A DNA stretch of 64,000 bases from Promethearchaeota archaeon (GCA_016930515.1 JAFGGO010000108.1:32224-96223); one strand, 5' to 3'; counted from the first letter of the stretch, positions 4,264 to 40,803 are shown. Notes: a model not told the origin generated them from the sequence alone. Numbers and translations: made by a program.

Positions 4264-4264
4264 C

Positions 4265-18519: not shown

Positions 18520-19437
18520 ATGAATGGTAAAAAAGGATTAATTCATAAAGTAGAGAGATTTTCCCTTCACGATGGTCCAGGCATTAGGACTTTGGTCATA
18601 ATGAAAGGATGCCCCTTAAAATGCTCCTGGTGTTCCTCCCCTTATACACAAAGTCCCAATCCCGAAATTCTTTATATAAAGAGTAAATGTACGGGGTGCG
18701 GTCGGTGTATTGAAACCTGCCAACAAAGTGCAATAACATGGGATGTAAATCTCTCTCAAGTAATAACGGATAGAACATTATGTATTGGTTGTGGTAAGTG
18801 CGTCAGTGTTTGTCTTAATGCCGCTCGTGAGTTATCAGGTAGGTCTTATACGATACAGCAATTATTCCAAGAAGTTGAAAAGGATGCGATCTTTTATCGT
18901 CGAAGTGGGGGTGGAATTACCATAGGTGGTGGGGAACCAACATTACAGGCCGAATTTGTTGGTGAATTTCTATCTATATGCCAATCACATTTTTTTCACA
19001 CAGCCATGGAAACATGCGCCCTTACCTCTTGGGAAAAATTTGCCCCCCTCTTGGATTTGCTCGATCTTGTTTATATTGATCTCAAACACATGAATGATAG
19101 TTATCATATTGCATGGACAGGAGCTTCCAATCGTGAGATTCTAAAAAATATTAGAAAAGCCGCCCAGAAAAATCAAATAATATTACGAATTCCCTTAATT
19201 CCTGGATTTAACGATTCTACGGAAAATATCACAGAGAGCGCAAGATTTGCGAAACAACTCGGAAAGAACATTATACGCCTGGAACTTTTACCTTATCATC
19301 AATTCGGTATTCATAAATACGAAGAATTAGAAAGAACATATACAATTGAATCCATTCAACCCCCTTCGGAGGATGATATGGTAAATTTACAGGATATTGT
19401 CAGATCTTTCGGTATTGAAGTAAAAATAGGCGGCTGA
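18520..19437 (+). CDS. Glycyl-radical enzyme activating enzyme with 2x[4Fe-4S] ferredoxin insert
   Basis: HDGPGIRT, GCPLKCSWC, CTGCGRC...C, CIGCGKC...C, GGGEP and ELLPYH. Confidence 0.95.
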   Translation: MNGKKGLIHKVERFSLHDGPGIRTLVIMKGCPLKCSWCSSPYTQSPNPEILYIKSKCTGCGRCIETCQQSAITWDVNLSQVITDRTLCIGCGKCVSVCLNAARELSGRSYTIQQLFQEVEKDAIFYRRSGGGITIGGGEPTLQAEFVGEFLSICQSHFFHTAMETCALTSWEKFAPLLDLLDLVYIDLKHMNDSYHIAWTGASNREILKNIRKAAQKNQIILRIPLIPGFNDSTENITESARFAKQLGKNIIRLELLPYHQFGIHKYEELERTYTIESIQPPSEDDMVNLQDIVRSFGIEVKIGG

Positions 19438-19486
19438 GATGTGACATATCAGAACATCATTAACGAATAAAAAAAAAGGTATTTGT

Positions 19487-21934: not shown

Positions 21935-21959
21935 TAAATCCATTAAAAAAGTAAAAAAA

Positions 21960-24470: not shown

Positions 24471-24647
24471 ATTAGTATTTAAAACATTCATTCATTCTTT
24501 TTATTAATTATTTTTCTAAGAATCTTTAGCTATTTCTAAATGAAATATGAAATCTAAAGTTCATTTATTAGAATATAAAAAAACCAGACTACATAACGAA
24601 ATATTCGATCTTTATATTAAATAATTAAAAAAAAAGGTAATTATTGT

Positions 24648-27101
24648 CTAAAATTCACTGAAAACGGTTCTTGCGATGATATCGTCTTGAAGGTTTTTAC
24701 TAAGATCTATAAAACGAGCAGAATAACCCGAAACCTTGACTGAAAGATCGGGGTATCTTTCTGGATGAGCCTGTGCGTCCTTCAACGTTTCAGAGCTTAC
24801 AGGATTAATCTGAAGTTCTCTCCCTCCTAATTCAAAGTATGCTTCAACTATAGAAGTGAGTTGGTCTATTCCTTTGTCATTATCTATCAAGCTTGGATTA
24901 ATTCTCACGTTTAACGCAACTCCATTGGTAAGAAGGGCATCGCGCGAAGCTAAAGCTACTGATCGGAGTGCCATGGTAAGACCATTCTTTTCCGTGCCGT
25001 TTACGGGAGAAAGTCCATTCGATACGGCTTCGCCTTGTATTCTTCCATCTGGAGTGGCTCCTAACATTTTACCCTCCAAAACCTGCGTTCCCGCTGCAGA
25101 TACGAGGCTAGATCGATATATACCATCACCCCCCCTCACGTGATATTTTCTTGGAATGTTGCTAAAAAGCTCCATGACCCATTTTGCAAGTTCGTCTACC
25201 TCTTCGTCGCCATTACCGTATTTGGGCGCTTTATTTCTTAATTGTTGCTTGAGTGCTTCTGCGCCCTTGAAATTATTACGAAGATGTTTAACCAATTCTT
25301 CCATTGTTATCAATTTTTGCTCGAAAACTGCCCAACGAATTGCCGCAAGCGAGTTAACAACCGTTCCTAAGGCTTGTCCATTCATACAACTATTATTGTA
25401 GCGTGCCCCGCTTCGGGTAATATCGTTTCCACTCTCCAAACAACCCTCTATCGTGGATGATATTAATGGAGAAGGAAATTCTTCTGCAAATACCTTGTCT
25501 TTCAATTCTGCCATTTTCACGACTTTATCTATTGAAAAAGCAAGTTGATCAGCAAAGGCTTTCTTTACATCTTCAAAAGATTTAAAAGTACTTGGATCGG
25601 GGGTTTTTGCACCTACTTGTTTTTCTCCCAATAAAAGAACCCTTCCCTCGTTTAAAGCCATGTTAAGAACGACCGCCATAAAAATACCGTTACCTCCGGT
25701 ATAGGAAAAATCGTTACCTGTACCTGTGGGTTCTACACACCCCACGATTGAATAATCTCGAGCATCTTCTAGTGAATAACCGTCTTTTTGAAGTTGTGGT
25801 ATTAATATCTCGTCGTTATGAATGGCCATTCCCGCAGTAAATCGAAAAGTTTCAATAACTCTTTTAAAAAATTCCCGTGGCGTTTTAGAAGAGATCCGTA
25901 TTGACAAAGTGTTTAATAAACTTTTTACGTTTGCAATAGCTTCAAGAAACATGAAAGATACATCGTTTGTTGCGTCGTTTCCGTCATTATCTACGCCCCC
26001 AATCGTTATGTTATTCTGTCCTGCTATGACAACGGAAGCAAGTTTAACTAAATATTCTTCAATCGCTCCTAAAGCTTGCTTATAAGTAATCCTTCCTTCT
26101 TCTAAATCCGCTGCGTAAAAAGGATAAAGATATTGGTCCACTCGTCCTTGAGAAAATATGTTCATGTCGCCATAACTCATTTCCATGACGACATTAGTCA
26201 TCCATACGGATTGAATTGCTTCCATGAAAGATGTAGGTGGGAGTGCTGGCACTCTTCTTGCACGTTCTGCAATTTTTAAAAGTACTACTTTTCTTTCTTC
26301 GTTAGCATTTTCAGCCATTTTCACGGCAAGTTCCGCATATCGGTTTGAATAATCGCAAACGGCTTTAGAAGTTACCAAAACTGCTTCGTAAAAATCTTTG
26401 CGTTGTTCGTAATTCTCGTCCGTTTCTTTGAGTTTCGCAAGACCTTCGGTCGCCATTTTTTCTATTCCTTTAAATCCTAGTTCTAATACTCGTTTATATC
26501 CTGGAATGACATGTCCTTGCATGTCGGCTAATAATGCATAAGTACCGGGATTTTGTGCAAGTAATCTACCGAGTATTGCGGCCATTGGTCCTGTCAAATC
26601 TTCAAATAATCCTGCTTCTTTCAAGCGTTCAACTTTCCGATTACTTAAAGTTTTACCCTTCCAGAACGGAATGATGTTATTTTTCAAATCATTGCGCTCT
26701 TGTTCTGTAAAAGGAGCATAACGTTCAAGGTGATTCAACTGTCCCATTAACATTTTTTTAATGCTTTCATCGACTTGATCGCTTAAGAGAACTTCGTATA
26801 TGCTAACATGGGTTCCAAGTTCTATTTCGAATGGATCAGCTCTGATTTTACTAGATTTTTTTCCTACAAGCAGCTCATTATCATCAATCCTTATCGGAAG
26901 ACACCGTAAGAATTCCTCTAATGCTTTAGCTTTCCGCAGGCAAGGTGGTGATCCCTCCATTTGCTTCCAGATTCTTGTATAACATCGAGCTCGCTCAATG
27001 TCATATTCAAAAGGACTAGATAACATCTTATCCCTTATTTTTCGAACCCTCTCTGAAGGTATCCCTTGTAGAGGTTTCATGGTTAATTCTTGGATCGTCA
27101 T
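24648..27101 (-). CDS. Glycyl radical enzyme 3 (GCVE-type eliminase/PflD-like; substrate unknown)
   Basis: Cys loop VGCVEP; Gly loop VKVSGYSARF; convergent with GRE1/2. Start is 27101 or 27080. Confidence 0.9.
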   Translation of the reverse strand: MTIQELTMKPLQGIPSERVRKIRDKMLSSPFEYDIERARCYTRIWKQMEGSPPCLRKAKALEEFLRCLPIRIDDNELLVGKKSSKIRADPFEIELGTHVSIYEVLLSDQVDESIKKMLMGQLNHLERYAPFTEQERNDLKNNIIPFWKGKTLSNRKVERLKEAGLFEDLTGPMAAILGRLLAQNPGTYALLADMQGHVIPGYKRVLELGFKGIEKMATEGLAKLKETDENYEQRKDFYEAVLVTSKAVCDYSNRYAELAVKMAENANEERKVVLLKIAERARRVPALPPTSFMEAIQSVWMTNVVMEMSYGDMNIFSQGRVDQYLYPFYAADLEEGRITYKQALGAIEEYLVKLASVVIAGQNNITIGGVDNDGNDATNDVSFMFLEAIANVKSLLNTLSIRISSKTPREFFKRVIETFRFTAGMAIHNDEILIPQLQKDGYSLEDARDYSIVGCVEPTGTGNDFSYTGGNGIFMAVVLNMALNEGRVLLLGEKQVGAKTPDPSTFKSFEDVKKAFADQLAFSIDKVVKMAELKDKVFAEEFPSPLISSTIEGCLESGNDITRSGARYNNSCMNGQALGTVVNSLAAIRWAVFEQKLITMEELVKHLRNNFKGAEALKQQLRNKAPKYGNGDEEVDELAKWVMELFSNIPRKYHVRGGDGIYRSSLVSAAGTQVLEGKMLGATPDGRIQGEAVSNGLSPVNGTEKNGLTMALRSVALASRDALLTNGVALNVRINPSLIDNDKGIDQLTSIVEAYFELGGRELQINPVSSETLKDAQAHPERYPDLSVKVSGYSARFIDLSKNLQDDIIARTVFSEF

Positions 27102-27107
27102 ATATAA

Positions 27108-27147
27108 ATTAATGACCGTCGTGCATTTAAAGATTTTTGTCATTAAT
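27108..27147. promoter_or_regulatory. Inverted repeat straddling a TATA-like box upstream of GRE3
   Basis: ATTAATGAC (27108-27116), N22, GTCATTAAT (27139-27147), with TTTAAA at 27126-27131. Confidence 0.5.
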
Positions 27148-27339
27148 GCAAGATTTAAAAATTCGATTTTATATTTTCAAAGCTGATTTTGAAAAAATGG
27201 CTATATTTTCTTAATAAAATGATGATTTAGGTCATATAATATCTTAAAAACCAAACGAGTAAAAAGATTCTTTGAGTGGTAAGTTTTTTTGTGAACCTCT
27301 CTTATGTTTAAGAAAAATTCACTTGTATTAAAACGATAT

Positions 27340-28434
27340 TTAAAATAAATGATCTTCTATTATTTTTGAACCATAGTCCGCTTGTTTTACTTTCACGATA
27401 TCGCTTTCAGGAATTCCAATGTCTCCTAAAAAACCTTGAACTCCTTCAATATCTTCAGTTCTGCAAAAACAATGGATGTTTGGTCCCGCATCGACAGTAA
27501 AATAGCATTCGATTCCCTCTTTTTCTTTTTGTTTCACGCCTTCTTTAAGTAATTTAGCAGTTTGAAAATATTGATATCTTAGTTTTGTAACCCGTTTCAT
27601 AACTCGTAAAGTGTTAGGATTCCAATAAAACAAGGGCGGATCAGATGTCATCATCACACTATGCATGTACAAGCAATTTTTCTCTGTTATTTTCCCCACC
27701 GTAGTAAAATCGTCGTTCATGATTGCTTCCCTGATTTCCACGCATTGTCTTTCGGATTCTTTAATTTTTATGGGATTAAACACGCTCGAATGTGCTGAAT
27801 CGTGTCCAACATTTGATATGACTTCTTTTTCCTCTCGGTTTATTACAGCTATGACGGCGGCAATGTTAAATTCGTTGCAGGCACATATTTGTTCAGCGTA
27901 AGATGTGTCATGAGAGTTTCCCTTTTTCCACCATACAAACCCGCCGTGAATCGAGCGAGCTGCAGAACCAGAACCCAGTCGTGCGTATTTTGATAGTTCG
28001 GTATTGTCTAAACCTAGATTTAAAGCATTACTAGTACACGTCGCAAGTGCTGCAAACGCTGAAGCCGAAGAAGCTAAACCCGCTGCCGTTGGGAACTTGT
28101 TCTCGCTTACCATTTTAAAATGTAGATCTACATTAGCTAACTCTTTTAATGGATTTACCACTGCCAAAATTCGTTTCATTTGGCTTTGATCAAACACGCT
28201 CAATTCATTATTTGTTTTTAAAAAAGCAGTGTCTTTGCTAAAGTTTTCTGAAAATTCTATTGTTGTGTGTGTGATAAGGTCAATTCCCGTTTTGGAACTT
28301 TCAATGGATTCTTTCGTCATGCTAACAGTATCGTTCGTGGGAATGTTAAGGTACGATGGATGATCGACGGCGCGACCCCAATATTTTATTAAGGCTATAT
28401 TTGGATGTGCTACAGCTGAAGATTTCAATTTCAT
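27340..28434 (-). CDS. mvaD: (Di)phosphomevalonate decarboxylase
   Basis: NIALIKYWG, FPTAAGLASSAS, RLGSGSAARS and TVDAGPNIH. Confidence 0.9.
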   Translation of the reverse strand: MKLKSSAVAHPNIALIKYWGRAVDHPSYLNIPTNDTVSMTKESIESSKTGIDLITHTTIEFSENFSKDTAFLKTNNELSVFDQSQMKRILAVVNPLKELANVDLHFKMVSENKFPTAAGLASSASAFAALATCTSNALNLGLDNTELSKYARLGSGSAARSIHGGFVWWKKGNSHDTSYAEQICACNEFNIAAVIAVINREEKEVISNVGHDSAHSSVFNPIKIKESERQCVEIREAIMNDDFTTVGKITEKNCLYMHSVMMTSDPPLFYWNPNTLRVMKRVTKLRYQYFQTAKLLKEGVKQKEKEGIECYFTVDAGPNIHCFCRTEDIEGVQGFLGDIGIPESDIVKVKQADYGSKIIEDHLF

Positions 28435-28558
28435 GTTAAACCACTTTTATATTATAGAAATTTGTATTCAAGGAATTATAAATTTGGTTTTGTTTTTAAA
28501 GAAACTGTTTATAGATTAGAACTTAATCTTTAAATAACAAGGAAAAATAAATGCAAGT

Positions 28559-29722
28559 ATGAACGAGTATTCTTCAGAGATATCGGGTTTCCATAAGCTC
28601 TCTATCGAAGAGAGGTTAAAAATAATCAAGGAAAAAGTAGGTCTTAACGACGAGGAAACTGATATTCTCCAGAATTTTGGATATTTTGAACCCCAAGCAA
28701 TGGACATGCTCATTGAAAATGTTATAGGAAGTTATCAATTACCTTATTCAATCGCATGCAACTTTAAAATAAATGGAAACGATTACCTCGTTCCAATGGT
28801 CTTGGAAGAACCTTCGGTTGTAGCTGCTGCTTCAAATGTGGCGAGGATGGCGAGAAAATATGGTGGGTTTCACTGCGAAAAAATTCGTCAAGTCATGATA
28901 GGTCAAATTCAGATCGTGAATCTTAAAGCAGTTGAAGATGCTGTAAAAAATATTGAGGTAAACAAGGAAAAAATTATTCGTCTCGCAAACGACCAAGATC
29001 CTATTCTCATTAAATTTGGAGGAGGTGCAGTTGATTTAGAAGTAAGACCAATCGATACTATTAAAGGACCGATGATAATCGTCCACTTGCTCGTCAATGT
29101 ACTGGATGCAATGGGTGCTAACGCCGTGAACACGATGGCCGAGGCAATAGCACCGCTTTTGGAAGAATTATCCCGTGGAAAAGTCTTGCTCAGGATTATT
29201 TCGAATCTTGCTACTCATAGAATCGCAAAATGCAAGGCTACTTTTGATAAGGACATGCTAGGGGGTGCTGAAGTGGTTGAGGGCATATTAAATGCTTATG
29301 CGTTTGCTAAGGCAGATCCTTTCAGATGTGCAACTCATAATAAAGGAATAATGAACGGGATAATAGCTCTTACTTTAGCAACGGGAAACGATACACGGGC
29401 TATCGAGGCAGGAGCGCACGCTTATGCGGCTTTAAACGGATATTCCCCTCTCAGTTGTTTTGAAGTGGATCCTTTTGGTAATCTAGTAGGAGAACTTGAG
29501 CTTCCAATGGCGTTGGGAATCATTGGAGGACTCACGAAAACGCATCCGTTAGCAAGGATTTCGCTAAAGATTCTGGGGATAAAAAAAGCAGAAGAATTGG
29601 CTCAAGTTGCCGTTGCGCTTGGGCTCTGCCAGAATGTGGCGGCTTTAAGGGCACTTGCTGCCGAAGGCATACAAGCGGGGCACATGAAGTTGCACAAAAG
29701 AAAAGCAGAAAAAATAGATTGA
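28559..29722 (+). CDS. mvaA: HMG-CoA reductase, class II
   Basis: ENVIG, EEPSVVAA, DAMGAN, THNKGIMNG and GHMKLH. Confidence 0.95.
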   Translation: MNEYSSEISGFHKLSIEERLKIIKEKVGLNDEETDILQNFGYFEPQAMDMLIENVIGSYQLPYSIACNFKINGNDYLVPMVLEEPSVVAAASNVARMARKYGGFHCEKIRQVMIGQIQIVNLKAVEDAVKNIEVNKEKIIRLANDQDPILIKFGGGAVDLEVRPIDTIKGPMIIVHLLVNVLDAMGANAVNTMAEAIAPLLEELSRGKVLLRIISNLATHRIAKCKATFDKDMLGGAEVVEGILNAYAFAKADPFRCATHNKGIMNGIIALTLATGNDTRAIEAGAHAYAALNGYSPLSCFEVDPFGNLVGELELPMALGIIGGLTKTHPLARISLKILGIKKAEELAQVAVALGLCQNVAALRALAAEGIQAGHMKLHKRKAEKID

Positions 29723-29767
29723 TATCCATTATTATTGACTTGTATTTGCTTAATAAGGCTTAAAGGA

Positions 29768-30154
29768 TCATATGATTGAAAGACTCCTTGTTTTTTCAAG
29801 ACCTTTTGCAAATTTAGACATTTTAAATTGGACGCAATCGTTTGTTTGAATGATCTTTATCGCCCATTGGGGAATAAAGCTATTATACTTTACTTCCATG
29901 ATGCATGTTCCCGGAGGAACGATAAATTTTGAACCTCCTCCGTAATGAAGATCGAGATTATAATTTCGAACTACCATGTTTGTGTCAAAAGTAAGCCTGA
30001 AATTTCTTTCCATTATCGATACATACGGTTGTCTTTTATAAGAAACACAACATTCGGGTTTCAAGTTTAATCTTTTTATAAGAAACCAATTCTCTTCCAA
30101 TGTTTTTTTATCTTGATTGGTATTAAATTCAAGCCAAAATTGAAAAATGAATCT
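29768..30154 (-). pseudogene. C-terminal fragment of a VTC/polyphosphate-polymerase domain gene
   Basis: YKRQPY...RLTFD...IMEVKY...SKF are VTC C-half motifs. The frame ends at TGA 30155-30157 and the N-terminal half is absent. Confidence 0.65.
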
Positions 30155-30328
30155 TCAATGAATTTAATGAAAAGATCTTCAATCATATGTTTAGAAATTG
30201 AAATATTATTTAAAAACCAGTTGGAGTGTTGCTGGAATATTGATATGTTCTATTCTCTTATTCTGAAAATACAAAAACATTATATAAATATCTTCGTGTT
30301 GGAATAAATGATAAAAATGAGAGAAGAT

Positions 30329-31840
30329 TCATTTATTTTTTTTCATTGCTACCTTTTTAACATCTTTTGTGATCTTTTCACAAGCAAGTTGAGCAGAAAT
30401 GATGGAAACTGGGACTCCCACACCGGGATGAGTATAATGTCCGGCGTAATACAGGTTTTTAACCTTCTTGCTTTTATGATGAGGTCTAAACACGGCAGTT
30501 TGTCGCAAGGTATGAGCTAATCCAAGTGCCGTACCCTTGAAAGCGTGAAATGTATTTTTAAAATGCTCGTGCGCAACAATCCGTTTTACAACGATAGAGT
30601 CCTTAATCGATTCTCCCGTTAGTTTTTCAACCTTTTCAAGGACTTTATCAAAATATTGCTCTCGGAAGGATTCAATATCGTCAAGATCGGGAGAAACTAA
30701 AACAAGAATGGTCATGAGCTCTCCTCCCTCAGGAATTAGGGACGGATCTGACTTTGAAGGGACGGTAATATAAATAGATGGATCTTCTGGCCATTGTGGG
30801 TTTGATCCAAAAATCTTATTGAAGTAATCGTCCCAATCGGGGTTAAAATAAAAATTATGATGCAAGAAATTGTTTAATTTCTTGTTCAACCCAAGATAAA
30901 CCAAGAACGCCGCTGGAGCAATTATTTTCTTCTTCCAATACTTCTCTTTATATGTTCTATATTTTTCCTCTATTAATTTCATTTCTCCATGTTCGTAATC
31001 TCCTGTGTTTAAAATGATGTCCGCTTGAAAATTTCCATTACTTGTTAGCAATCTCTTTCCCATTTTGTCTTTTACTTCTATTTTAAACACTTCAGTATTA
31101 AACTTGAAATCTACTCCTTTTTCTACTCCTAAATTTTTAATTGCGTCAACAATGGCTCCAAAACCCCCCAATGGATACCAAATTCCAAGGTTCATATCAC
31201 AATGAGCTAAAATAGAATAAACCGCGGGGCTAATGGGCGGGGAGGCACCAACAAAAGCTACGCTATATTGGACAATTTTTTGAGCTTTATCGCTTTTAAA
31301 ATATTTTTTTACGAACTTATCAAGTTTCGTGAGAATTTTAAGCTTTAATCCCTTAAAAATCAGCGATCTATCCAAAAAATCAAGGATATTCCAATAATCC
31401 TTATAGAGAAAATGATCGAAAACGATATCGTACATTGCTTTCGAGCGTTCGATAAATTTTCGTAATTTTTTACCTCCTTCCTTTTCGAATGTATCAAAAA
31501 GTTTGTAATTTTCGTTTATATCTGCCTTGATATCTAAAGAATCGTTTTCACCGAAATGAACTCGATAAGAGGGATCTATACGCACTGTTTTATAATAATC
31601 TTCGGGTTTTTTTCCAAAGAGGGCGAAAAAATTGTCAAACGCATCAATCATCATGTACCACGAGGGTCCCATATCAAAGACGTAACCTTTTTCTTGCCAA
31701 ACCATGCCTCGACCTCCAGGCTTGTCGTTTTTCTCGAGTACCGTGACTTCGAAGCCTTCTTTTGCTAAAATAGCTGCTGCTGATAAACCAGTAAAACCGG
31801 CTCCTATAACCATTACTTTTCTTCCTTTTATTTCTTTCAT
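30329..31840 (-). CDS. crtI: Phytoene desaturase
   Basis: GAGFTGL, FDMGPSWY, GIWYPLGG, LAHTLRQTAVFRP and THPGVGVP; directly downstream of crtB. Confidence 0.92.
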   Translation of the reverse strand: MKEIKGRKVMVIGAGFTGLSAAAILAKEGFEVTVLEKNDKPGGRGMVWQEKGYVFDMGPSWYMMIDAFDNFFALFGKKPEDYYKTVRIDPSYRVHFGENDSLDIKADINENYKLFDTFEKEGGKKLRKFIERSKAMYDIVFDHFLYKDYWNILDFLDRSLIFKGLKLKILTKLDKFVKKYFKSDKAQKIVQYSVAFVGASPPISPAVYSILAHCDMNLGIWYPLGGFGAIVDAIKNLGVEKGVDFKFNTEVFKIEVKDKMGKRLLTSNGNFQADIILNTGDYEHGEMKLIEEKYRTYKEKYWKKKIIAPAAFLVYLGLNKKLNNFLHHNFYFNPDWDDYFNKIFGSNPQWPEDPSIYITVPSKSDPSLIPEGGELMTILVLVSPDLDDIESFREQYFDKVLEKVEKLTGESIKDSIVVKRIVAHEHFKNTFHAFKGTALGLAHTLRQTAVFRPHHKSKKVKNLYYAGHYTHPGVGVPVSIISAQLACEKITKDVKKVAMKKNK

Positions 31841-31851
31841 TATGATAATAC

Positions 31852-32676
31852 CTATCTTCTAATTTTAATCGAGTTTTTTATTATTTCTAAAATTATCCTC
31901 CGTTTAGAAGGTTTAACTCTCTGATCGTACACGATAAACGGATTTTCTCTTATTTTTAACGCAGTCCATTTATACATGTCCGAAGCAGTTTTAATGGGAA
32001 TTAAATATCTTTTTGGAATGTATTTATATCCGTTTTCTGCTTCTTTTACCCATTTAAAGTAAAGATCAATTTGGTCCGAGATGAATCTTATGAACTCTTC
32101 TCTGTTTTTGGTTGTTTCTTCTCTTGTCAAATTTTTCAAATCATACCCATTTAAGGGAAGATAACGCCTTCCTAGCTTAATATCTTCTAGTATATCTCGA
32201 ATAAAATTAATGTATTGCATGGATGTACCAAGTCTTTCTGCTGCGAAATAAGATCTTTCAGGCAAATCAAGGATTTTTGCCATGAATAAACCGATAACTT
32301 CGGCAGAACCGTGAATGTATTTGAGTGTTTCGACTAAGGTATCGTAATTTTTCTTTGTAAGATCCATCTCCATTGCCCATAGAAAATCGTCGACCCAAAT
32401 ACTCTCGAATTGTTTTCTACGCATCAATTCGACGAAAGAATCGATAATAATATCGTTGCTTTTCTTCCCATTGAGGGATAGTCTATACTTGTCGCAAAAA
32501 TTTAAAAAAGCCTCCTTGTTTTGTGGAATCGCATCTACATAATTATCTGCAACTCTCACGAATCCATATAAAACGAATACATCTCTTCTCACATTCTTGG
32601 GAAAGAAAATGCTACTATTGAAATAGGTCTTGCTTCCTTCCTTGAAAATAGTATGATGAATGTGTGATATTGACAT
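31852..32676 (-). CDS. crtB: Phytoene synthase
   Basis: SKTYF, YGFVRVADNYVD, YIHGSAEVIGL and NFIRDILED...GRRYLP. Confidence 0.93.
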   Translation of the reverse strand: MSISHIHHTIFKEGSKTYFNSSIFFPKNVRRDVFVLYGFVRVADNYVDAIPQNKEAFLNFCDKYRLSLNGKKSNDIIIDSFVELMRRKQFESIWVDDFLWAMEMDLTKKNYDTLVETLKYIHGSAEVIGLFMAKILDLPERSYFAAERLGTSMQYINFIRDILEDIKLGRRYLPLNGYDLKNLTREETTKNREEFIRFISDQIDLYFKWVKEAENGYKYIPKRYLIPIKTASDMYKWTALKIRENPFIVYDQRVKPSKRRIILEIIKNSIKIRR

Positions 32677-32919
32677 GTTGTAGAATGATAAATTTCATTT
32701 ATTTTATATATTTTGCATTTAAAATATTAATAGATTTTATATATTAGTAGAGAGATAAGTTTTCCTTGGATACTATCTATTTATTCAATTATAGGTTGTG
32801 GATCTTTTTCTTCTCATTAGTTGGAACTAATTAACTTGAACTTTTATAGTATTATATAAATCTAATTTATACTTTAGGGACAAAAGATTTATAAAATAAA
32901 ATGAAATCATTTACTACAT

Positions 32920-34542
32920 ATGACCGAAATAACAAATAACGATTTTTTCTTCAATGTTGGCATTGATTCTATGGGTTTTTACACTTCAAAATATTATGTT
33001 GATCTAAGAGAATTAGCAGAAGTTCGAAATGTCGATCCAGACAAGTATTTAAGGGGGTTGTTAACCACCGAGATGAGGATTCCTGGACCTGGGGAGGATA
33101 TAGTAAGCATGGCAGTAAAAGCAGGGCACTATGCCTTACATAAAGGAAATATAAACCCTGAGGAAATCGACGCCATTTTTCTAGGCACGGAAACCATGAC
33201 TTACGCCGTTAAGTCAATTGCTAATGTTCTTTCAGAGATTTTTGGTACTACCATAAATTGCGTCACTCAAGATGTATATAACGCTTGTGCTGGAGCAACA
33301 CTTGCGGTTTTAAACGCGATAGGCTTAATAAATAATGGAATAATCAACAAGGCTTTAATTATTGGGGCTGATATTAGTCATTATAAATTAGAAAGCCCAG
33401 GAGAACCAACTCAAGGTGCGGCAGCAGCAGCAGTGGTTATCTCTAAAAATCCCCGGGTCGCCGCTTTTGGAAAGAATTTTGGAAAATATACCGCTAATAT
33501 TTACGATTTCTATAGATTACCCTATGAGGATTATCCCGTTGTATTTGGAAAATATTCGATCGATTCCTATCTTAAATTCCAACTTGGGGCATTCGACGAT
33601 TTCTTCAAAAATGCTAGAAACATTCTACCCGATTATCTGGCTTTCCACTCGCCTTTTGCGAAGTTACCTCTTAAAAACATCCAAAATCTATTATTAAATA
33701 GATGGGAAACGCTGAAAAAAATCTTGCTCGATAAACAATCGCCAAATGCCTGTCCCGTGATGATTCACGATCAAGCCTGCGATGTGATGAAAGATATGAT
33801 CGAACCAATTTTTGAAAATATGAAAGTAGATGATAAATATCAAAATATTGAATCAATGAAAATTGATTTAATCAATAGTCTCACAAACAGGTTTCTTCCG
33901 ACTCTTAATGTACCGATGTCAATTGGAAATATGTATTCAGCGTCAATTTGGGCTCAATTAATTTATCTTTTAGAGAATATTGTTAATCAAAATGACCTGA
34001 TTTATTTTGGGTCTTACGGTTCTGGAGCAACATGCATTTCTGGAATGCTAAAAGTCATGCCAAGTTTTAAACAAATCGTTGAAAAAGGTCCCAAAGTAAT
34101 GAATTTCATAGAAAACAAGGAGCGTAAAACCGTTCAAGAATACGAAGAAATGAGGGAAAAAATTGACGCGAAAAAAATTCATCATGCACGAATCGAACCC
34201 CACCCATCTCCAAAAAATTATTTCGTGGAAATTGGCGTTTGCGAGGGAGGTTGCTTGGTGTCAAAATTAGAAGGGCTTGATTTTTGCCCTCGTGGTACCA
34301 ATAAAACTCATAAAAAAAGGCTTCCAATGTACGCCGTAGTGGCAACTGATCCTACTCACGATATGAATGAGAATGAATTGTCTGCAGATGATGTTGTTCG
34401 AGTTTCTCCAGATGTAAAAAAAGGTCAAACCGTTGAATACAACATGCTTCGGGCGGGAAAAAACGAATCTGCTCATTGTGTTCAAACTGGATTTATAACT
34501 TGGATTCCGACTTATAAACCTATAAATTATCCTATAGAATAA
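32920..34542 (+). CDS. mvaS: HMG-CoA synthase with C-terminal DUF35-like extension
   Basis: GTET, NACAG, GEPTQGA, HSPF, GNMYSAS and SYGSG, plus an extra ~120 aa Cys-containing tail. Confidence 0.88.
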   Translation: MTEITNNDFFFNVGIDSMGFYTSKYYVDLRELAEVRNVDPDKYLRGLLTTEMRIPGPGEDIVSMAVKAGHYALHKGNINPEEIDAIFLGTETMTYAVKSIANVLSEIFGTTINCVTQDVYNACAGATLAVLNAIGLINNGIINKALIIGADISHYKLESPGEPTQGAAAAAVVISKNPRVAAFGKNFGKYTANIYDFYRLPYEDYPVVFGKYSIDSYLKFQLGAFDDFFKNARNILPDYLAFHSPFAKLPLKNIQNLLLNRWETLKKILLDKQSPNACPVMIHDQACDVMKDMIEPIFENMKVDDKYQNIESMKIDLINSLTNRFLPTLNVPMSIGNMYSASIWAQLIYLLENIVNQNDLIYFGSYGSGATCISGMLKVMPSFKQIVEKGPKVMNFIENKERKTVQEYEEMREKIDAKKIHHARIEPHPSPKNYFVEIGVCEGGCLVSKLEGLDFCPRGTNKTHKKRLPMYAVVATDPTHDMNENELSADDVVRVSPDVKKGQTVEYNMLRAGKNESAHCVQTGFITWIPTYKPINYPIE

Positions 34543-34611
34543 TATTTTTAAATCCAATAGGAAAATTTACATCTTTGGAATATTATCTTGAAAAGGATGA
34601 TAGTAAATCGA

Positions 34612-35715
34612 TTATAATCGTTTGAAATCTACTTTTCTTTCTTTTAACCATCCTTTCAGCGAAGAACTAATCACTATAGGTGATTTTTTAAGTTCCTCAA
34701 TAGATTTACTTCCAGTTAAAAGCATTGTAATCCTTAGTTCTCCAATGATTTTATCAATGAAGTTATCAATTGAACCTTGGCCCTCTAATGCAGCCATGAG
34801 AAAGGGTCTTGCCAAGGCTGCGTAATCTGCACCAATCCTTATCGTTTTTGCAATGTCTATTCCGTTTCTTATCCCGCCACTACCTATAATTTTTCTGTCA
34901 GTATATCCATTTGAAGCATAATTTACTTCAATAATACTCGCAGCAGTAGGAATCCCCCAGTCCCAGAATAACTCACCAAAATCCATATTAACCTTGATAT
35001 CGTGTTTTTTTGCTCTATAATATTCAACTGCAATCCAGCTTGTTCCACCCACACCTGCTACATCAATGTATTTTATTCCTATATTGAATAATTTTTTCGC
35101 TATTTCTTTGGAAATACCGCAACCTGTTTCTTTGATAACTATTGGGATATCAATTTGATCTTTTAGTTCTGCGATTTTATCAAGAGTGCCAGAGAACGCT
35201 TTATCGCCTTCTGGTTGTACTAATTCTTGGATCACGTTGAGATGTATTGCAAGAGCGTTTGCATTGATATTATTGATGATTTCTTCAATGTATTCAAATT
35301 TATCAGAATTTGCTACTTGTGCCATGCCAATATTTCCAACAATAGGGACATCGGGAGCACACTTTCTAACCGCAGAAAAGGATTCTTTCGTTTCTGGATG
35401 CCTTATTATGACTCGTTGACTTCCAACCATCATTGGTATTCGATATTTTTGGGCAGCTTTTGCTAAGGAAACATTTATTTTTTTTGTTAATTCCGTTCCA
35501 CCGGTCATTGCTCCAATTATAATTGGAGCAGACAAGGACTTGCCAAGAAATTCGCAAGATAAATTGATGTCGTCTAAATCTAATTCGGGTAAGGTATTAT
35601 GAACGAATCTCACGTGTTCGAGCCAAGTTGAATCGTGACTTTCTACATTTTCCGTACTTACCAGAACGATATGCTCGTCTTTTCTGTTTTGTATGGGTAT
35701 TTTTGAGATATCCAC
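34612..35715 (-). CDS. fni: Type 2 isopentenyl-diphosphate isomerase
   Basis: RKDEH, AMTGG, GSQR, HLN..QE..QPEGD, KETGCG and GGTSW. Confidence 0.96.
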   Translation of the reverse strand: MDISKIPIQNRKDEHIVLVSTENVESHDSTWLEHVRFVHNTLPELDLDDINLSCEFLGKSLSAPIIIGAMTGGTELTKKINVSLAKAAQKYRIPMMVGSQRVIIRHPETKESFSAVRKCAPDVPIVGNIGMAQVANSDKFEYIEEIINNINANALAIHLNVIQELVQPEGDKAFSGTLDKIAELKDQIDIPIVIKETGCGISKEIAKKLFNIGIKYIDVAGVGGTSWIAVEYYRAKKHDIKVNMDFGELFWDWGIPTAASIIEVNYASNGYTDRKIIGSGGIRNGIDIAKTIRIGADYAALARPFLMAALEGQGSIDNFIDKIIGELRITMLLTGSKSIEELKKSPIVISSSLKGWLKERKVDFKRL

Positions 35716-35819
35716 TTTAACACCATTTTAAAATCGATTTTAATAATAGAAGGTATGAAAACACCATTAATAAGTCTTTTAGGATAAATAATTTCGGAAT
35801 TAATCCTTATTTTTCCCAT

Positions 35820-36533
35820 TTATTTTAAAACTACGAAAATTCTGGTTGCGATAAAAAATACCGTTTGAATTAAAACAAACCACGGACTCTGTGGGCTTTC
35901 TCTTAGAGAGCATCTTTTAATTTTGGGAATTATCAAATAAGATATTGCAAATAGAAAAGATATTAAAAACCACGCAATATAATTTTGTATTGGGACTATC
36001 ATTGGATTGTTCGTTAGTGTCCAAGTCCAGTAGTTCAATCCAATCGCTGCTGGTTCCATGATATAATCAAATAATGTCGCAAGGATGGCAGTAAAGAGCG
36101 ATATAAAAAAAATCCTCATCTTATTGTTGAAACTCGGTTTGATTAATCGATCAAAAGCCCATTCAGAAAATAGTACCAACGAAAGAATGATTATTACCCA
36201 ATTCAAGCCAATAACGACGGGTACATTTAATATTTTAGGTCCAAGCACTTCTCCATAATAATATGGGCCAAAAAAGAGAGAAAATGCCACGCCAAGTGCT
36301 TCCAAGGTAAATGTAATAATATATGCAACGATGATCCAAAAAACAACATTCCACTTTTTGAAACACTTGTGAATGGCCCAGAGACCTGAGATCAAGATCA
36401 CGAGCGGAGTGATTAACATCATGAAAGAAAATGTATATTCCCAAAGATGGAACAATATTCCGATTCCATAAAAAATTGCAATTATTATCGTCTGGAACTT
36501 CCAGTCAGTTATTTTTATTTCTTTCTCTCTCAA
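35820..36533 (-). CDS. cruF: Carotenoid 1,2-hydratase (CruF family)
   Basis: Multi-pass protein with EALGV...FGPYYY..LGPK...VP, D..MEP and W...VPIQNYIAWF; abuts the crtD-like gene. Confidence 0.85.
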   Translation of the reverse strand: MREKEIKITDWKFQTIIIAIFYGIGILFHLWEYTFSFMMLITPLVILISGLWAIHKCFKKWNVVFWIIVAYIITFTLEALGVAFSLFFGPYYYGEVLGPKILNVPVVIGLNWVIIILSLVLFSEWAFDRLIKPSFNNKMRIFFISLFTAILATLFDYIMEPAAIGLNYWTWTLTNNPMIVPIQNYIAWFLISFLFAISYLIIPKIKRCSLRESPQSPWFVLIQTVFFIATRIFVVLK

Positions 36534-38024
36534 TCATTTTCTCCTCGAGTATTTATCCACGAGTTCAGCACAGATTTTTCCCGATAACAATACTAAAGGC
36601 ATTCCTCCTCCTGGATGGGCACTTCCTCCGCAAAAATACAAGCCTTTTATCTTAATACTCCTGTTTCTATGGCGCATGAATGCGGCTGATTTAGTGTTTG
36701 AACTTATGCCATAAAGACTACCACGGGTGGATCCAGTTCGTCTCTCTATTTCTGGTGGCGTGAGAATCCCTTCTGCAACAATATGATTTTCTATGTTAAC
36801 GCCCAATCGCTCGGATAAAAGGTTAATGGTGGCTTTTCTAGTTTTAGAGGCAAATTCGTCCCAATCTTGACCGTAATCTGCTGGCGCGTTAATGAGTACA
36901 AACCAGTTTTCGCAACCTTTTGGAGCATCCGCGGGGGTGAGTTTTGATGTAATGTTGACATAAACCGTTGGCTTTTCAGGTATGTTTTTATCCTCGAACA
37001 TAGCCTTAAATTCCGCTTCATAATTAGAGGAGAAGAATATATTATTTACGGATAATTCCTCAAATATCCTATTAATTCCCCAATAAAAAACGATACCACT
37101 CGAACTTGGTTCCAGCTTCTTATATCTTCGTGCTTTTTTCGAGTTTGGTAAATTTAGAAGTGAATCGTAAGTTGAAATGACATCTGCGTTAGAAATTACG
37201 GCATCGTAGGTCTTTTCTTCTAATACGGTTTTGATGCCAATAACCTTCCTTTTTTTTATCGTAATTCCTCCTACACTCTGATTGAAATAAAAGCGCACGC
37301 CTAGATCTTTTGCAGCTTGGTAAAGTTTTTTAGGAATTTCAAAAATACCTTCTTTAATTCCAAATCCCCCGCCTATATATTCGATAAACGGTATGATAAT
37401 CATGGTTGCGGGAGTTTGATATGGATTCGAACCGTTATAGGTTGCGTACCTATTAAAAAGCTGTACGATGCGAGGATCCTTGAAATATTTCTGGTTAATC
37501 TTGTTCAAAGTGCTAAATGGGTGGATACGAGCGAGCTGGAGGAACTTGTAAAGAAAGGAAGGTTTTAACAATCTTTTTAACTCGTGAATCGGTTGGGTTA
37601 AAAATAGGGTTCCACCGAGTTCATAAGCTTTTTTAGATTCCTTCAAATATGTTTCTAATGATTTTAGGCCATGAGGAACGATTCTTTCCAATTCTTTTCC
37701 AAATTTTTCCAGATCTGACCAGGCTTTTAGATAACTTCCATCCGATAGAAAATAAGTACAGATCTCGTTTAATTTTATAAAAGTAAGTTCTTGAATCATG
37801 TTCTTGCCCGCAGTCTTAAATAAGTCTTCAAATACCCAAGGCATTGTCACCAAGGAAGGTCCTGTATCAAATCTATAACCGTCATAGTACTCTTCAGCGG
37901 CTTTTCCCCCAGGAAACGATTGAGTCTCGTAGACATCCACTTCCCATCCCTTTCTTTTTAGATAAATCGATGCCGACAAGCCTCCTAATCCAGAACCTAC
38001 TATCGCAGCTTTATTCGAGTCCAT
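36534..38024 (-). CDS. crtD: CrtI-family desaturase, probably hydroxycarotenoid 3,4-desaturase
   Basis: GSGLGGL, FDTGPSL, FNRYATYNGSNPY, GSLYGISSN and HPGGGMPL. It is the second desaturase of the cluster and sits next to cruF. Confidence 0.75.
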   Translation of the reverse strand: MDSNKAAIVGSGLGGLSASIYLKRKGWEVDVYETQSFPGGKAAEEYYDGYRFDTGPSLVTMPWVFEDLFKTAGKNMIQELTFIKLNEICTYFLSDGSYLKAWSDLEKFGKELERIVPHGLKSLETYLKESKKAYELGGTLFLTQPIHELKRLLKPSFLYKFLQLARIHPFSTLNKINQKYFKDPRIVQLFNRYATYNGSNPYQTPATMIIIPFIEYIGGGFGIKEGIFEIPKKLYQAAKDLGVRFYFNQSVGGITIKKRKVIGIKTVLEEKTYDAVISNADVISTYDSLLNLPNSKKARRYKKLEPSSSGIVFYWGINRIFEELSVNNIFFSSNYEAEFKAMFEDKNIPEKPTVYVNITSKLTPADAPKGCENWFVLINAPADYGQDWDEFASKTRKATINLLSERLGVNIENHIVAEGILTPPEIERRTGSTRGSLYGISSNTKSAAFMRHRNRSIKIKGLYFCGGSAHPGGGMPLVLLSGKICAELVDKYSRRK

Positions 38025-38703
38025 CTCCTCCTTTAAAACTATATTTTCTGAAAAAGAAATACGTGAATAAGTAAAGAGCGATGAGTGAAAAGCTATAAAA
38101 GAAGTCTTCGATGGGTATGGTAACGATTCTGAGTCCTATTATTGCCTCCTCATTGTATATCACTATGGGTAAACCAGTAAAAATACCGTTGAAGATTAAA
38201 AAAGGAATATAGCTCAAGAATAATGCTATAATTGTCCAACTAGATTGGAAATTTCTGAACTTCAATGTGCTTATCAATAGCATTGTGATAAAAAACATGA
38301 TTCCAATGATGATCGTATATCCTTTATTAAGAAAAAATAAAAGGGGGGTAAAACCTATTGAGCCGATACAGATAAGAATATATCTGGAATATTCAAGTAT
38401 TTTTTCTTTAAAATACGCACGAACGCACTCGTAAATAAAAATGGTTGCGTAGGGGACCGCTATAAAAAAAAACCACTCTCCTATTGGAAGATTAAATAAC
38501 TTCAATGTTCCTGCGTATTGTTCTGAAAACGACCAATGACCTAACTCCGTCACGACCATGTCCCAAATTATGAAGCCAGTACTAACCACCAAAATGCTCA
38601 AAAATAATGCAGGCCACCTGCGCCAAAAAGCAACTTTCTTATCAAAAGATAAAAGAAAGGGCGCTATAATAACAAAAAAATTTAACCAGAAATATAGAGA
38701 CAT
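38011..38703 (-). CDS. crtY: Membrane-type lycopene beta-cyclase (fused CrtYc/Yd)
   Basis: Two hydrophobic repeats with PIGEWFFF and PIEDFFY motifs; overlaps the crtD start by 14 nt. Confidence 0.85.
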   Translation of the reverse strand: MSLYFWLNFFVIIAPFLLSFDKKVAFWRRWPALFLSILVVSTGFIIWDMVVTELGHWSFSEQYAGTLKLFNLPIGEWFFFIAVPYATIFIYECVRAYFKEKILEYSRYILICIGSIGFTPLLFFLNKGYTIIIGIMFFITMLLISTLKFRNFQSSWTIIALFLSYIPFLIFNGIFTGLPIVIYNEEAIIGLRIVTIPIEDFFYSFSLIALYLFTYFFFRKYSFKGGDGLE

Positions 38704-38887
38704 TGTGAAGAAAATCTTGATATTTAATTCTCAAAAGAATTTATCTTAATTAAAATAATTTTTAGTTATAAAGCATAAATAATAATGCAAATAACCTGAA
38801 AAATATAAATCTAAAAGGTAATATCGATAAAAGATATTACAAAGGAAATATTTTCACACTTACTTATTATTTTTTTGAGTTATTAAA

Positions 38888-39085
38888 TTGAAAGGAACAA
38901 GGCGAGCTGAGGTCATACCGGGAAAAAGTGTATTAATCGTGTTGAAAAAGGATCAACATTCAGGGAAATTAACCCAAGGTATTGTAAAAGATGTGCTAAC
39001 AAATTCGCAAAATCACCATCACGGAATTAAAGTCAGGCTGGTTGATGGGAAAATTGGAAGGGTTAAACAAATAATGAAATCTTAA
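38888..39085 (+). CDS. YwbE (DUF2196) family small protein
   Basis: VLKKDQ.SGKLTQG.V...LTNS..H.HGIKVRL.DG.IGRV. Confidence 0.85.
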   Translation: MKGTRRAEVIPGKSVLIVLKKDQHSGKLTQGIVKDVLTNSQNHHHGIKVRLVDGKIGRVKQIMKS

Positions 39086-39372
39086 TGTGGATTAATTTCA
39101 AAATATTACTCAACAATACAAGAGTATTTAGGTGATGTAACTCTTTTCTCCTCTAGCATGGGTTTTTTAGTAATTATTACTTCTATGTTTTGAAGATTTT
39201 TTCATTAAACAGGGCGATGCTCTCTTAAACTGCGCCTATATTGATTTGTTCTTCTAAGTGGGGTACCTAATTATTATATGAGATTCCCCGCACCATTGTC
39301 TTTAAAAAGAAAACAATTTGTTTTTTCTATCGTGAAAAAGGGAACGAACCCACTAAAATAAGAAAACAAGAA

Positions 39373-40803
39373 ATGAAAATAAGAATGTTAAAAGAAACAA
39401 GAAGAATGACCGGAACGGTCAAATGGTATGACGAAAAGAAGGGATTTGGATTCGTAACACCCGATGTAGAGGGAAAAGACGTGTTTCTACATCATACTGC
39501 CCTGCAACCTTCAGAAAGTGAATTTTTTATTACAGGAGACCGAATCACCTTCACAATCGAAAGTAAAGATAAAGGGCTTACTGCTCTCGAAGTAAGGCGA
39601 TTCGAAGAAAAAAAAGAGGGTGTTCCGTCCTTGAAAAAAGAGGATCTTAATGGAGCGGCATTCAAGAATCTCGATCTTAACTCTGACATCTTACGAGCTA
39701 TTGAAGATATTGGCTATGCTTTCCCAACGCCAATTCAAGCTCGAGCAATTCCCGTAATCTTAGAAGGAAAAGATTTATTGGGATGTGCTCAAACTGGAAC
39801 TGGAAAAACAGCGGCCTTTGCACTTCCCCTCCTCCACCGATTATGTCAATCCTTACGATGCGAGAAAAAACAAATTAGAAATAATCGTCGTATAAAAGCC
39901 TTAATTTTATCTCCCACGAGGGAGTTGGCAATTCAAATAGGAAATAATTTCAATATTCTTGGAAAATATACGGGACTTAAATCCACGGTAGTTTACGGTG
40001 GAGTAGGACAAAATCCACAAGTTAACGCATTAAAAAGAGGAGTTGATATTTTGGTCGCCACGCCTGGACGATTGCTTGATCTGAATAGACAGGGTCACTT
40101 GGATTTAAGCTACATCGAGGTGCTAGTCTTAGACGAAGGGGATAGGATGCTCGATATGGGTTTCATTCACGACATCCGAACAATCGTAGACATGGTTCCT
40201 AAAATAAATCGGCAAACAATGCTCTTTTCGGCGACGATCCCTAAAGAAATTAAACAATTTGCACGTGCTATATTAATAGATCCTATAGAAATTGATATAT
40301 CTCCCGAACAACCTACCTTGGATGTTATCGAACAAGCGGCTTACATCGTTACGAAATCTAAAAAACAGGTTCTATTGGAATCATTACTAAGAGATCCATC
40401 AATGGAAAAAACCTTGGTTTTCACTCGTACCAAGCATGGCGCAAATAAAGTCGTTAAAAGCTTATTGAGAAAAAGATTTTTAGCCGAAACAATTCACGGG
40501 GATAAGTCACAAACCGCCCGTCAAGCAGCCTTAAAGAATTTTCGCTCTGGAAAGACTCGAGTACTCGTGGCAACTGATGTAGCCTCGCGCGGGATCGATG
40601 TGGCTGATATTTCACACGTAATTCAGTTTGATTTACCAGACACTCCAGAAACTTACGTGCATCGAATAGGACGTACAGCACGTGCAGGTGCTAAGGGTAC
40701 GGCCCTTGCCTTCTGCGAGCACGACCAGCATAAAGACCTAAAAGAAATCGAGCAGTTAATCCAAATGCGCGTGAAAATCGTTAAAAATCATCATCATTTT
40801 TAA
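39373..40803 (+). CDS. DEAD-box RNA helicase (RhlE-like) with N-terminal cold-shock domain
   Basis: CSD: GTVKWY..KKGFGFV..DVFLH. Helicase: PTPIQ, AQTGTGKT, PTRELA, TPGRL, DEGD, SAT and HRIGRTAR. Start may be 39406. Confidence 0.9.
   Translation: MKIRMLKETRRMTGTVKWYDEKKGFGFVTPDVEGKDVFLHHTALQPSESEFFITGDRITFTIESKDKGLTALEVRRFEEKKEGVPSLKKEDLNGAAFKNLDLNSDILRAIEDIGYAFPTPIQARAIPVILEGKDLLGCAQTGTGKTAAFALPLLHRLCQSLRCEKKQIRNNRRIKALILSPTRELAIQIGNNFNILGKYTGLKSTVVYGGVGQNPQVNALKRGVDILVATPGRLLDLNRQGHLDLSYIEVLVLDEGDRMLDMGFIHDIRTIVDMVPKINRQTMLFSATIPKEIKQFARAILIDPIEIDISPEQPTLDVIEQAAYIVTKSKKQVLLESLLRDPSMEKTLVFTRTKHGANKVVKSLLRKRFLAETIHGDKSQTARQAALKNFRSGKTRVLVATDVASRGIDVADISHVIQFDLPDTPETYVHRIGRTARAGAKGTALAFCEHDQHKDLKEIEQLIQMRVKIVKNHHHF

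Follow-up and report, generated by a model that had tools for sequence, protein, structure and literature searches.

A cluster of carotenoid (crt) and mevalonate-pathway genes was analysed at positions 27340-38703 of a 64,000-nucleotide stretch from Promethearchaeota archaeon GCA_016930515.1 (JAFGGO010000108.1:32224-96223). This whole stretch is hereafter called the window, and coordinates without a locus or contig label refer to it. The host was a sediment-dwelling archaeon of the class Lokiarchaeia. Judging from the gene content, we consider it probable that the cluster represented an intact C40-carotenoid pathway joined to Lokiarchaeial precursor genes, with 1'-hydroxytorulene as its product and a role of this pigment in the membrane. 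Lokiarchaeia are regarded as strictly anaerobic inhabitants of dark sediments, and their lipids bear on ideas about the origin of eukaryotic membranes. An intact pathway that is confined to a few lineages and combines crt genes from several outside sources with native precursor genes would predict a lipid class as yet unobserved in Lokiarchaeia. The enzyme families and the pathway logic were all known; it was the lineage that was unexpected, and no new kind of enzyme or system was involved.

The cluster consisted of nine intact open reading frames (ORFs) and one gene fragment. All nine genes named in an earlier note on this DNA were present as intact ORFs, and Pfam and NCBIfam/TIGRFAM profile models covered their proteins from end to end. 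The minus strand carried an MVD-family decarboxylase, crtB followed by crtI, the isopentenyl diphosphate (IPP) isomerase gene idi2, and the run crtYcd-crtD-cruF; the class II HMG-CoA reductase (HMGR) and the HMG-CoA synthase (HMGCS) were encoded on the plus strand. The tight coupling described in the same note was also seen, with an overlap of 14 nucleotides between crtYcd and crtD, direct abutment of crtD and cruF, and a gap of 11 nucleotides between crtB and the crtI gene downstream of it.

The phytoene synthase CrtB (31852-32676, minus strand) matched PF00494 over its full length (158 bits). The phytoene desaturase CrtI (30329-31840, minus strand) scored 437 bits with TIGR02734 (cut-off 238) and 627 bits with NF058655 'CrtID' (cut-off 640), a model whose name matches the bifunctional CrtI/CrtD activity of two Haloarcula japonica enzymes (PMC11946383). 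CrtI was predicted to convert phytoene to lycopene and possibly to perform 3,4-desaturation as well. The first gene of the other run, crtYcd (38011-38703, minus strand), encoded a fused CrtYc-CrtYd lycopene cyclase of 230 residues with two PF18916 domains and 92 bits to TIGR03462 (cut-off 39). It was followed by the genes for the 1-hydroxycarotenoid 3,4-desaturase CrtD (36534-38024, minus strand; NF042421 505 bits, equivalog cut-off 500) and the carotenoid 1,2-hydratase CruF (35820-36533, minus strand; PF04240 92 bits, cut-off 25). The five crt genes were intact and 58-77% identical to their copies in seven other Lokiarchaeia genomes, which suggested that they were being maintained.

As the earlier note had proposed, these genes corresponded to the set known for a monocyclic 1'-hydroxy-3',4'-didehydro C40 carotenoid. 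Based on the known activities of each enzyme family, geranylgeranyl diphosphate (GGPP), supplied by the one polyprenyl synthase encoded in the genome, would be converted to phytoene by CrtB and then to lycopene by CrtI. CrtYcd would close one end of lycopene to a beta-ring and yield gamma-carotene, CruF would hydrate the 1',2' bond at the open end, and 3',4'-desaturation by CrtD would give 1'-hydroxytorulene (3',4'-didehydro-1',2'-dihydro-beta,psi-caroten-1'-ol), predicted to be a ring-bearing hydroxylated orange pigment. Since no CrtZ, LyeJ or other conserved neighbour accompanied the cluster, 1'-hydroxytorulene was the expected end product; beta-carotene and acyclic hydroxy-carotenoids might be formed beside it or in its place.

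CrtYcd-type cyclases include both monocyclases and bicyclases. The same five enzyme families could yield beta-carotene or acyclic hydroxy-carotenoids, and the CrtI score just under the bifunctional Haloarcula model indicated that the desaturation steps may overlap (PMC11946383). We nevertheless consider it unlikely that an active pathway had beta-carotene, a mixture, or acyclics of the rhodopin or didehydrorhodopin type (formed if CruF and CrtD use lycopene as their substrate) as its main products. The location of CruF and CrtD beside a cyclase, here and in many bacteria, fitted a product with one open end, and the arrangement of cyclase, CruF and CrtD was the same as in the characterised myxol pathway (PMC11855829).

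With respect to chain length, a C30 (diapo- or squalene-derived) pathway was not supported: the desaturases scored strongly with C40 CrtI/CrtD models and a lycopene cyclase was present. The matches of CrtB to solved structures were all weak and did not separate C30 from C40 chain length. A C50 product was not expected since no LyeJ-like elongase was found: the genome encoded four UbiA proteins (one DGGGP-synthase-like, one decaprenyl-phosphate phosphoribosyltransferase-like and two without assignment), none of which was located on the cluster contig or matched a LyeJ-type model. This agreed with the earlier note, which had seen no LyeJ in the window.

The mevalonate genes of the cluster belonged to the Lokiarchaeial stock. 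The class II (NAD-type) HMGR gene (28559-29722, plus strand; TIGR00532 461 bits), divergent from the MVD-like gene, had no second class II copy in the genome. This enzyme was found in 134 of the 161 Lokiarchaeia genomes, including 38 of the 40 high-quality ones, so it was the usual HMGR of the class. The cluster also carried second copies of two genes. Its HMGCS (32920-34542, plus strand; 540 residues, PF01154 and PF08540) shared 46% identity along its entire length with a 545-residue housekeeping copy on contig C178, and its type 2 IPP isomerase Idi2/Fni (34612-35715, minus strand; TIGR02151 422 bits), possibly co-transcribed after cruF, was 39% identical to the copy on the same contig. This cluster-type Idi2 was restricted to the cluster carriers, one further genome (G149) and family f3 (50-52% identity). 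Contig C178 itself held a complete archaeal mevalonate operon with genes for HMGCS, a UbiD-type decarboxylase, both subunits of phosphomevalonate dehydratase, mevalonate kinase (MVK; TIGR00549 227 bits, cut-off 163), isopentenyl phosphate kinase (IPK; NF040647 208 bits, cut-off 120) and Idi2. Apart from these loci, the genome encoded a class I-like HMGR on contig C22 (L003:5760-7010, plus strand; 416 residues), which reached 294 bits with TIGR00533 (cut-off 442) and was 25% identical to the HMGR of the cluster.

Related genomes suggested how this arrangement may have arisen. The native operon of genome G056, which itself included a class II HMGR and an MVD-like gene, had the order HMGCS, HMGR, AMPD, PMDh-L, PMDh-S, MVD-like, MVK, IPK, Idi2, and genome G152 possessed the HMGR of the cluster together with a separate native HMGR. 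In G149 (L119, G149:C4:137000-156000), a cluster-type HMGR (82% identity) and a cluster-type Idi2 (69-70%) were located within the native mevalonate operon of a genome that had no crt genes, a state that was either a precursor of the supercluster or a remnant after loss of the crt genes. The interleaving is best read as crt genes that became joined to a portion of the lineage's native isoprenoid locus, which had been split off or duplicated. A view of the mevalonate genes as a dedicated imported supply was not upheld, given that they were Lokiarchaeial and that the class II HMGR and MVD-like genes were the genome's only copies; as sole copies, these two would also serve the synthesis of membrane lipids. 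A single co-transfer of the whole block from a spirochaete was rejected as well, since the mevalonate proteins were 29-40% identical to those of Spirochaetaceae UBA5200 and 53-87% identical to Lokiarchaeial ones.

The MVD-family decarboxylase (27340-28434, minus strand; PF22700 and PF18376, TIGR01240 238 bits) was encoded by a gene that tblastn found only once in the genome, inside the crt cluster; MVD-like genes occurred in 24 of the 161 Lokiarchaeia genomes. Its best relative of solved structure was 6N0X (213 bits), the phosphomevalonate decarboxylase (PMD) of Anaerolinea thermophila (PMC9254496), while diphosphomevalonate decarboxylases (DMDs) scored at most 186 bits. The five GHMP-family genes of the genome encoded MVK, the MVD-like enzyme, a heptose-kinase-like protein, pantoate kinase and RFAP synthase; no phosphomevalonate kinase (PMK) was among them, and the genome gave no PF04275 match. 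The presence of MVK and IPK, the lack of a detectable PMK and the PMD as nearest structure fitted the view that the MVD-like enzyme was probably a PMD. It would decarboxylate mevalonate 5-phosphate and, with MVK and IPK encoded elsewhere, would provide a one-enzyme bypass of the steps performed by phosphomevalonate dehydratase and the UbiD-type decarboxylase. The coexistence of a probable PMD with a complete archaeal route gives an opportunity to test whether a single archaeon uses two mevalonate routes. In genus g12, a divergent protein of the GHMP/MVD family was encoded beside the cluster-type HMGR in genomes G137 (L023:4263-5465) and G149 (L119:8015-8980). The G137 protein was 28% identical to the MVD-like protein of G113 and the G149 protein 23% identical to that of the window; they may represent another decarboxylase or kinase of the mevalonate pathway.

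The crt genes had a different history. According to quick IQ-TREE runs for CrtD, CrtB, CrtI and CrtYcd, they appeared to have been acquired by Lokiarchaeia from two or more outside sources. In each tree the Lokiarchaeia sequences formed one well-supported clade, which fitted a single entry or assembly of the crt genes. The Lokiarchaeia clade of CrtD (support 100) was sister (93) to sequences from Spirochaetota, Verrucomicrobiota and allies, with Bacteroidota in a separate clade (support 99) and Ignavibacteria likewise apart. CrtYcd grouped with Spirochaetales, Verrucomicrobiota and Kiritimatiellia (support 99), and the nearest named relatives of CrtB were from Salinispira pacifica, Spirochaetales and Alkalispirochaetaceae (59-60% identity). 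The CrtI clade was sister to a Bathyarchaeota-labelled sequence (62% identity) together with an uncultured clade, followed by an unresolved group of Thermoplasmatota, Methanofastidiosum, Altiarchaeota, WOR-3 and Spirochaetales. The gene trees did not support an affinity of the crt genes to Bacteroidota: CrtB, CrtYcd and CrtD went with Spirochaetota, Verrucomicrobiota and Kiritimatiellia, and CrtI fell in a partly archaeal clade. The stems were long (0.5-0.9 changes per site), so that no sampled donor was close. Operons with the run crtI-crtB-crtYcd-crtD-cruF were frequent in Spirochaetales, Kiritimatiellia, Verrucomicrobiota and Ignavibacteria.

The closeness of several crt genes to bacterial relatives could also mean that bacterial DNA had been misjoined or misbinned into an archaeal genome of 4.0 Mb in 190 contigs (94% complete, 5.3% contamination), and the right junction (38703-39373) lay outside the matching independent contigs that were read. 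We nevertheless regard such an artefact as extremely unlikely. The cluster was present in eight Lokiarchaeia genomes, which belonged to three genera, and the contigs that carried it reached 604 kb. The mevalonate genes interleaved with the crt genes were Lokiarchaeial. The nearest homologues of the cluster proteins bore Lokiarchaeota or Promethearchaeota names. The GC content of the cluster was even and in line with the rest of its 96-kb contig, which also encoded Asgard-type proteins (a Ras-family GTPase, a BAR/FAM92 protein, Rad51/RadA and a thiolase with a DUF35 partner), and Asgard marker genes flanked the cluster on the left and right. Moreover, a 15,161-base contig from an independent assembly of the probable source run was identical to positions 24500-32776 without a single difference; it spanned the junction between a glycyl-radical enzyme (GRE) gene and the MVD-like gene and so bridged the left edge of the cluster. 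The continuity of the contig, which the earlier note had wanted to see confirmed, was supported by these results, and we treat the cluster as a genuine part of a Lokiarchaeial genome.

Within the class, this ring-forming pigment pathway was rare and the whole block was held by a small minority of genomes. Close CrtD orthologues (72-76% identity) were found in seven other genomes among the 161 of Lokiarchaeia: the window's genus had none in its five other genomes, compared with 2/42 in a second genus and 5/7 in a third. The two-domain CrtYcd was present in 8 of 400 Asgard genomes, all of them cluster carriers. G113 had all nine genes together in the same order as the window, G154 (on a 604-kb contig) and G152 had the nine genes together with the blocks rearranged, and G137 kept the order with a divergent GHMP-family gene, the one 28% identical to its G113 counterpart, instead of the MVD-like gene. 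The flanks varied between genera, and no extra pathway gene was conserved beside the cluster across genomes. The carriers originated in very different habitats: Baja_Loki1 and Baja_Loki3 were from a salt lagoon (top 1 cm; PMC6737245), and another, Hel238.bin105, from the methanic zone of North Sea mud at a depth of 238-263 cm (PMC8027215). A published survey placed a few Lokiarchaeia sequences in a CrtI-family subtree and judged them likely lateral transfers (PMC9907078). We found no published description of the cluster or its product, in agreement with the earlier note, which knew of no characterised carotenoid cluster in Lokiarchaeia.

Two other occurrences of related proteins were observed. 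Genome G160, from another Lokiarchaeia family, encoded a CrtD-like protein (47% identity; L026, G160:C400:6506-7594) and a CrtI-family paralogue without CrtYcd, and may hold a different carotenoid gene set. In the Asgard family f16 (genus g49), 10 of the 22 genomes had proteins of about 276 residues with a weak single Lycopene_cyc match (22-31 bits; e.g., G233:C13:34082-34291 and G227:C1:1538323-1538523), which were not the fused cyclase.

The window cluster differed from its sisters in lacking a crtZ-like gene. In G113, G137, G152 and G154, the spacer between crtB and HMGCS held an ORF of 159-171 residues with a PF04116 (FA_hydroxylase) domain and all four His motifs of the CrtZ type intact, and in G151, G153 and G155 a crtZ-like gene shared a contig with the crtI and Idi2 matches and lay between them. 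A class-wide search found the gene in exactly these seven other carriers and in no other Lokiarchaeia genome. The corresponding divergent spacer of the window (32677-32919, 243 nucleotides) contained no such gene, and the 94%-complete genome gave neither a PF04116 match nor a tblastn remnant of CrtZ, which made this cluster the sole crtZ-less version among the eight. Among the loci in hand, the closest genes to the sister CrtZ were from Ignavibacteriaceae and Flavobacteriaceae (34-41% identity). The window sequence branched first among the Lokiarchaeia sequences of the CrtD tree; crtZ may have been lost here or gained by the others after the split. Since the CrtZ-like 3-hydroxylase was absent only here, the product of the window cluster would be the 3-deoxy form of the saproxanthin-type product of its sisters, and this copy provides a natural case for comparison with the crtZ-bearing clusters.

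The missing hydroxylase was also relevant to the question of oxygen. On the predicted route of this genome, oxygen would be required as a substrate at no step. The earlier note had claimed that oxygenase-type genes were absent. This held for the genome, where CrtZ, Blh/Brp (PF15461) and CCD (PF03055) were searched for without a match, the PF15461 result being a weak negative as control genomes gave no match either. It did not hold for the family of clusters, in which all seven sisters encoded the CrtZ-like di-iron hydroxylase. Therefore, the proposal that the absence of oxygenases suited an anaerobe failed for the family, including its member from methanic sediment at 238-263 cm. The O2-dependent hydroxylase in the sister clusters, found even in this methanic-sediment genome, rather suggested past or intermittent exposure of the lineage to oxygen.

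A number of observations argued against an intact pathway with the predicted product and role. CrtB matched the CrtM, HpnC and HpnD models about as weakly as the curated CrtB models. CruF, which was 58-64% identical to the seven sister-cluster copies, was below every equivalog cut-off (e.g., 52 bits against 155 for TIGR03460) and was recognised by Pfam only; the MVD-like enzyme was also below all equivalog cut-offs, with 156 bits against 475 for the haloarchaeal PMD model NF040704. To judge from its sequence, CrtYcd may close one ring or two. With respect to electron acceptors for the two FAD desaturases, no genes were found for MqnA/D of the futalosine route to menaquinone or for cytochrome bd. 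A role tied to light was doubtful since one carrier came from dark, deep methanic sediment (PMC8027215). Finally, if crtZ was lost only here, this could be a first step of decay.

The last point leads to the possibility that the pigment part is silent or decaying in this genome and that the block persists only because the HMGR and MVD-like genes within it are still needed. Such a state would agree with the single crtZ-less cluster among eight, with the gene fragment inside it and with the lack of crtD in the five other genomes of the genus. However, the five crt ORFs were of full length, free of stops and covered by models from end to end, and their overlapping or abutting starts were kept. 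We therefore consider decay improbable. No RNA run was listed as containing the stretch, and two metatranscriptomes from the same study matched it by chance over 20 nucleotides at most; these results were uninformative on expression.

The most likely role of the pigment would be protection or stiffening of the membrane. Salinispira pacifica forms a carotenoid-like pigment anaerobically and has no quinones or cytochromes (PMC4511686). Because this species, whose CrtB was 59% identical to that of the window, makes its pigment without quinones, carotenoid chemistry appeared feasible in a quinone-less cell. A more far-reaching proposal is that a strictly fermentative Lokiarchaeon, with neither detectable quinones nor detectable O2-dependent enzymes in the pathway, makes a monocyclic hydroxy-carotenoid in the dark and without oxygen, as a lipid that orders an archaeal or mixed membrane and is fed by a second, single-enzyme mevalonate branch. 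We offer it as speculative and rather doubtful. If true, the carotenoid would play a part like that of sterols or hopanoids in the prokaryotes most closely related to eukaryotes.

The genome also encoded a heliorhodopsin on contig C45 (C45:34309-35163, minus strand; L112, PF18761 291 bits), a family that was found in 83 of the 161 Lokiarchaeia genomes. It was very unlikely that the cluster supplied beta-carotene for the retinal of this protein. A heliorhodopsin was indeed present here, and seven of the nine crtD carriers had one, but no Blh/Brp or CCD was found in the genome, and CruF and CrtD have no role in retinal synthesis. Moreover, heliorhodopsin was common in Lokiarchaeia without the cluster (76 genomes) and was not found in two carriers, which made the link weak.

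Among known systems, the operons of the Spirochaetota type (Spirochaetaceae UBA5200, L031; Salinispira pacifica) contained the same five crt families and the nearest relatives of the Lokiarchaeal CrtD (49-53% identity), CrtB (58-60%) and CrtYcd. In comparison to their single run, the Lokiarchaeal order was split into crtB-crtI and crtYcd-crtD-cruF, and its CrtI was not of the Spirochaetota type. As a look-alike, the crt operon of UBA5200 was also flanked by Idi2/HMGCS and HMGR/MVD; since the mevalonate proteins were only 29-40% identical, this likeness looked like convergence. Spirochaeta aurantia is said to make a 1',2'-dihydro-1'-hydroxytorulene glycoside, reportedly described by Greenberg and Canale-Parola in 1975. 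Hosts of the Spirochaetota-type operons are fermentative and form pigment without quinones (PMC4511686).

The open-end chemistry predicted for the Lokiarchaeon, with CruF and then CrtD acting on a monocyclic C40 carotenoid, is that of the myxol, saproxanthin and flexixanthin pathways of Bacteroidota. In the myxol pathway of Nonlabens spongiae, CruF performs the 1',2'-hydration and CrtD the 3',4'-desaturation of the open end (PMC11855829). Its cluster encodes CrtB, CrtI, CrtY, CruF, CrtD, CrtA-OH and CrtZ (PMC11855829), with CrtY instead of the fused CrtYcd, whereas neither CrtZ nor CrtA-OH was encoded in the Lokiarchaeal cluster. The bacterioruberin route of haloarchaea (CrtB, bifunctional CrtI/CrtD, LyeJ and CruF; PMC11946383) shares an archaeal host and GGPP derived from mevalonate, and haloarchaea also have CruF and a fused CrtY. 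Unlike in that route, no LyeJ-like elongase was found in the Lokiarchaeon and its CruF did not reach the equivalog models. Elsewhere in Asgard archaea, carotenoid genes have been described for the Heimdallarchaeia lineage 'Ca. Kariarchaeum', namely crtB, crtI, lyeJ and crtD (PMC12137139). This lineage is planktonic, lives in the photic zone and has proton-pumping rhodopsins; its set includes a putative lyeJ, lists no cyclase and is not interleaved with mevalonate genes. With respect to precursor supply, the haloarchaea-type mevalonate route (MVK, PMD and IPK; PMC9254496) had MVK and IPK in common with the Lokiarchaeon, in which no PMK was found and whose DMD-family enzyme had a PMD as its best relative of solved structure. 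In contrast to that route, the Lokiarchaeon also held the complete archaeal one with phosphomevalonate dehydratase and a UbiD-type decarboxylase.

Several minor features were observed in and around the cluster. The gene fragment (29768-30100, minus strand; 110 residues), which the earlier note had not listed, matched only the C-terminal part of the VTC domain (PF09359, profile positions 134-233 of 235). It lay in the interval between HMGR and crtI, which was only about 70 nucleotides long in the sister clusters, and was probably a scar of rearrangement and no member of the pathway. Directly beside the cluster, at 18520-27143, one glycyl-radical activase and three GREs were encoded. In G033, which belongs to the window's genus, a cluster-type HMGR (L118) likewise had an activase and a GRE as neighbours, and this adjacency may be older than the presence of crt genes in the locus. 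A thiolase and its DUF35 partner (ChsH2-type zinc ribbon and OB domains) were encoded at 3832-5524 on the minus strand, 23 kb from the cluster and apart from both HMGCS genes, each copy of which was about 540 residues long. A comparison of four AT-rich promoter regions revealed the 12-mer ATATAAATCTAA as the sole common element, located upstream of crtB and HMGCS (32677-32919) and of crtYcd (38704-39372). Given a GC content of 20-29%, it may be a chance match or a common promoter element.

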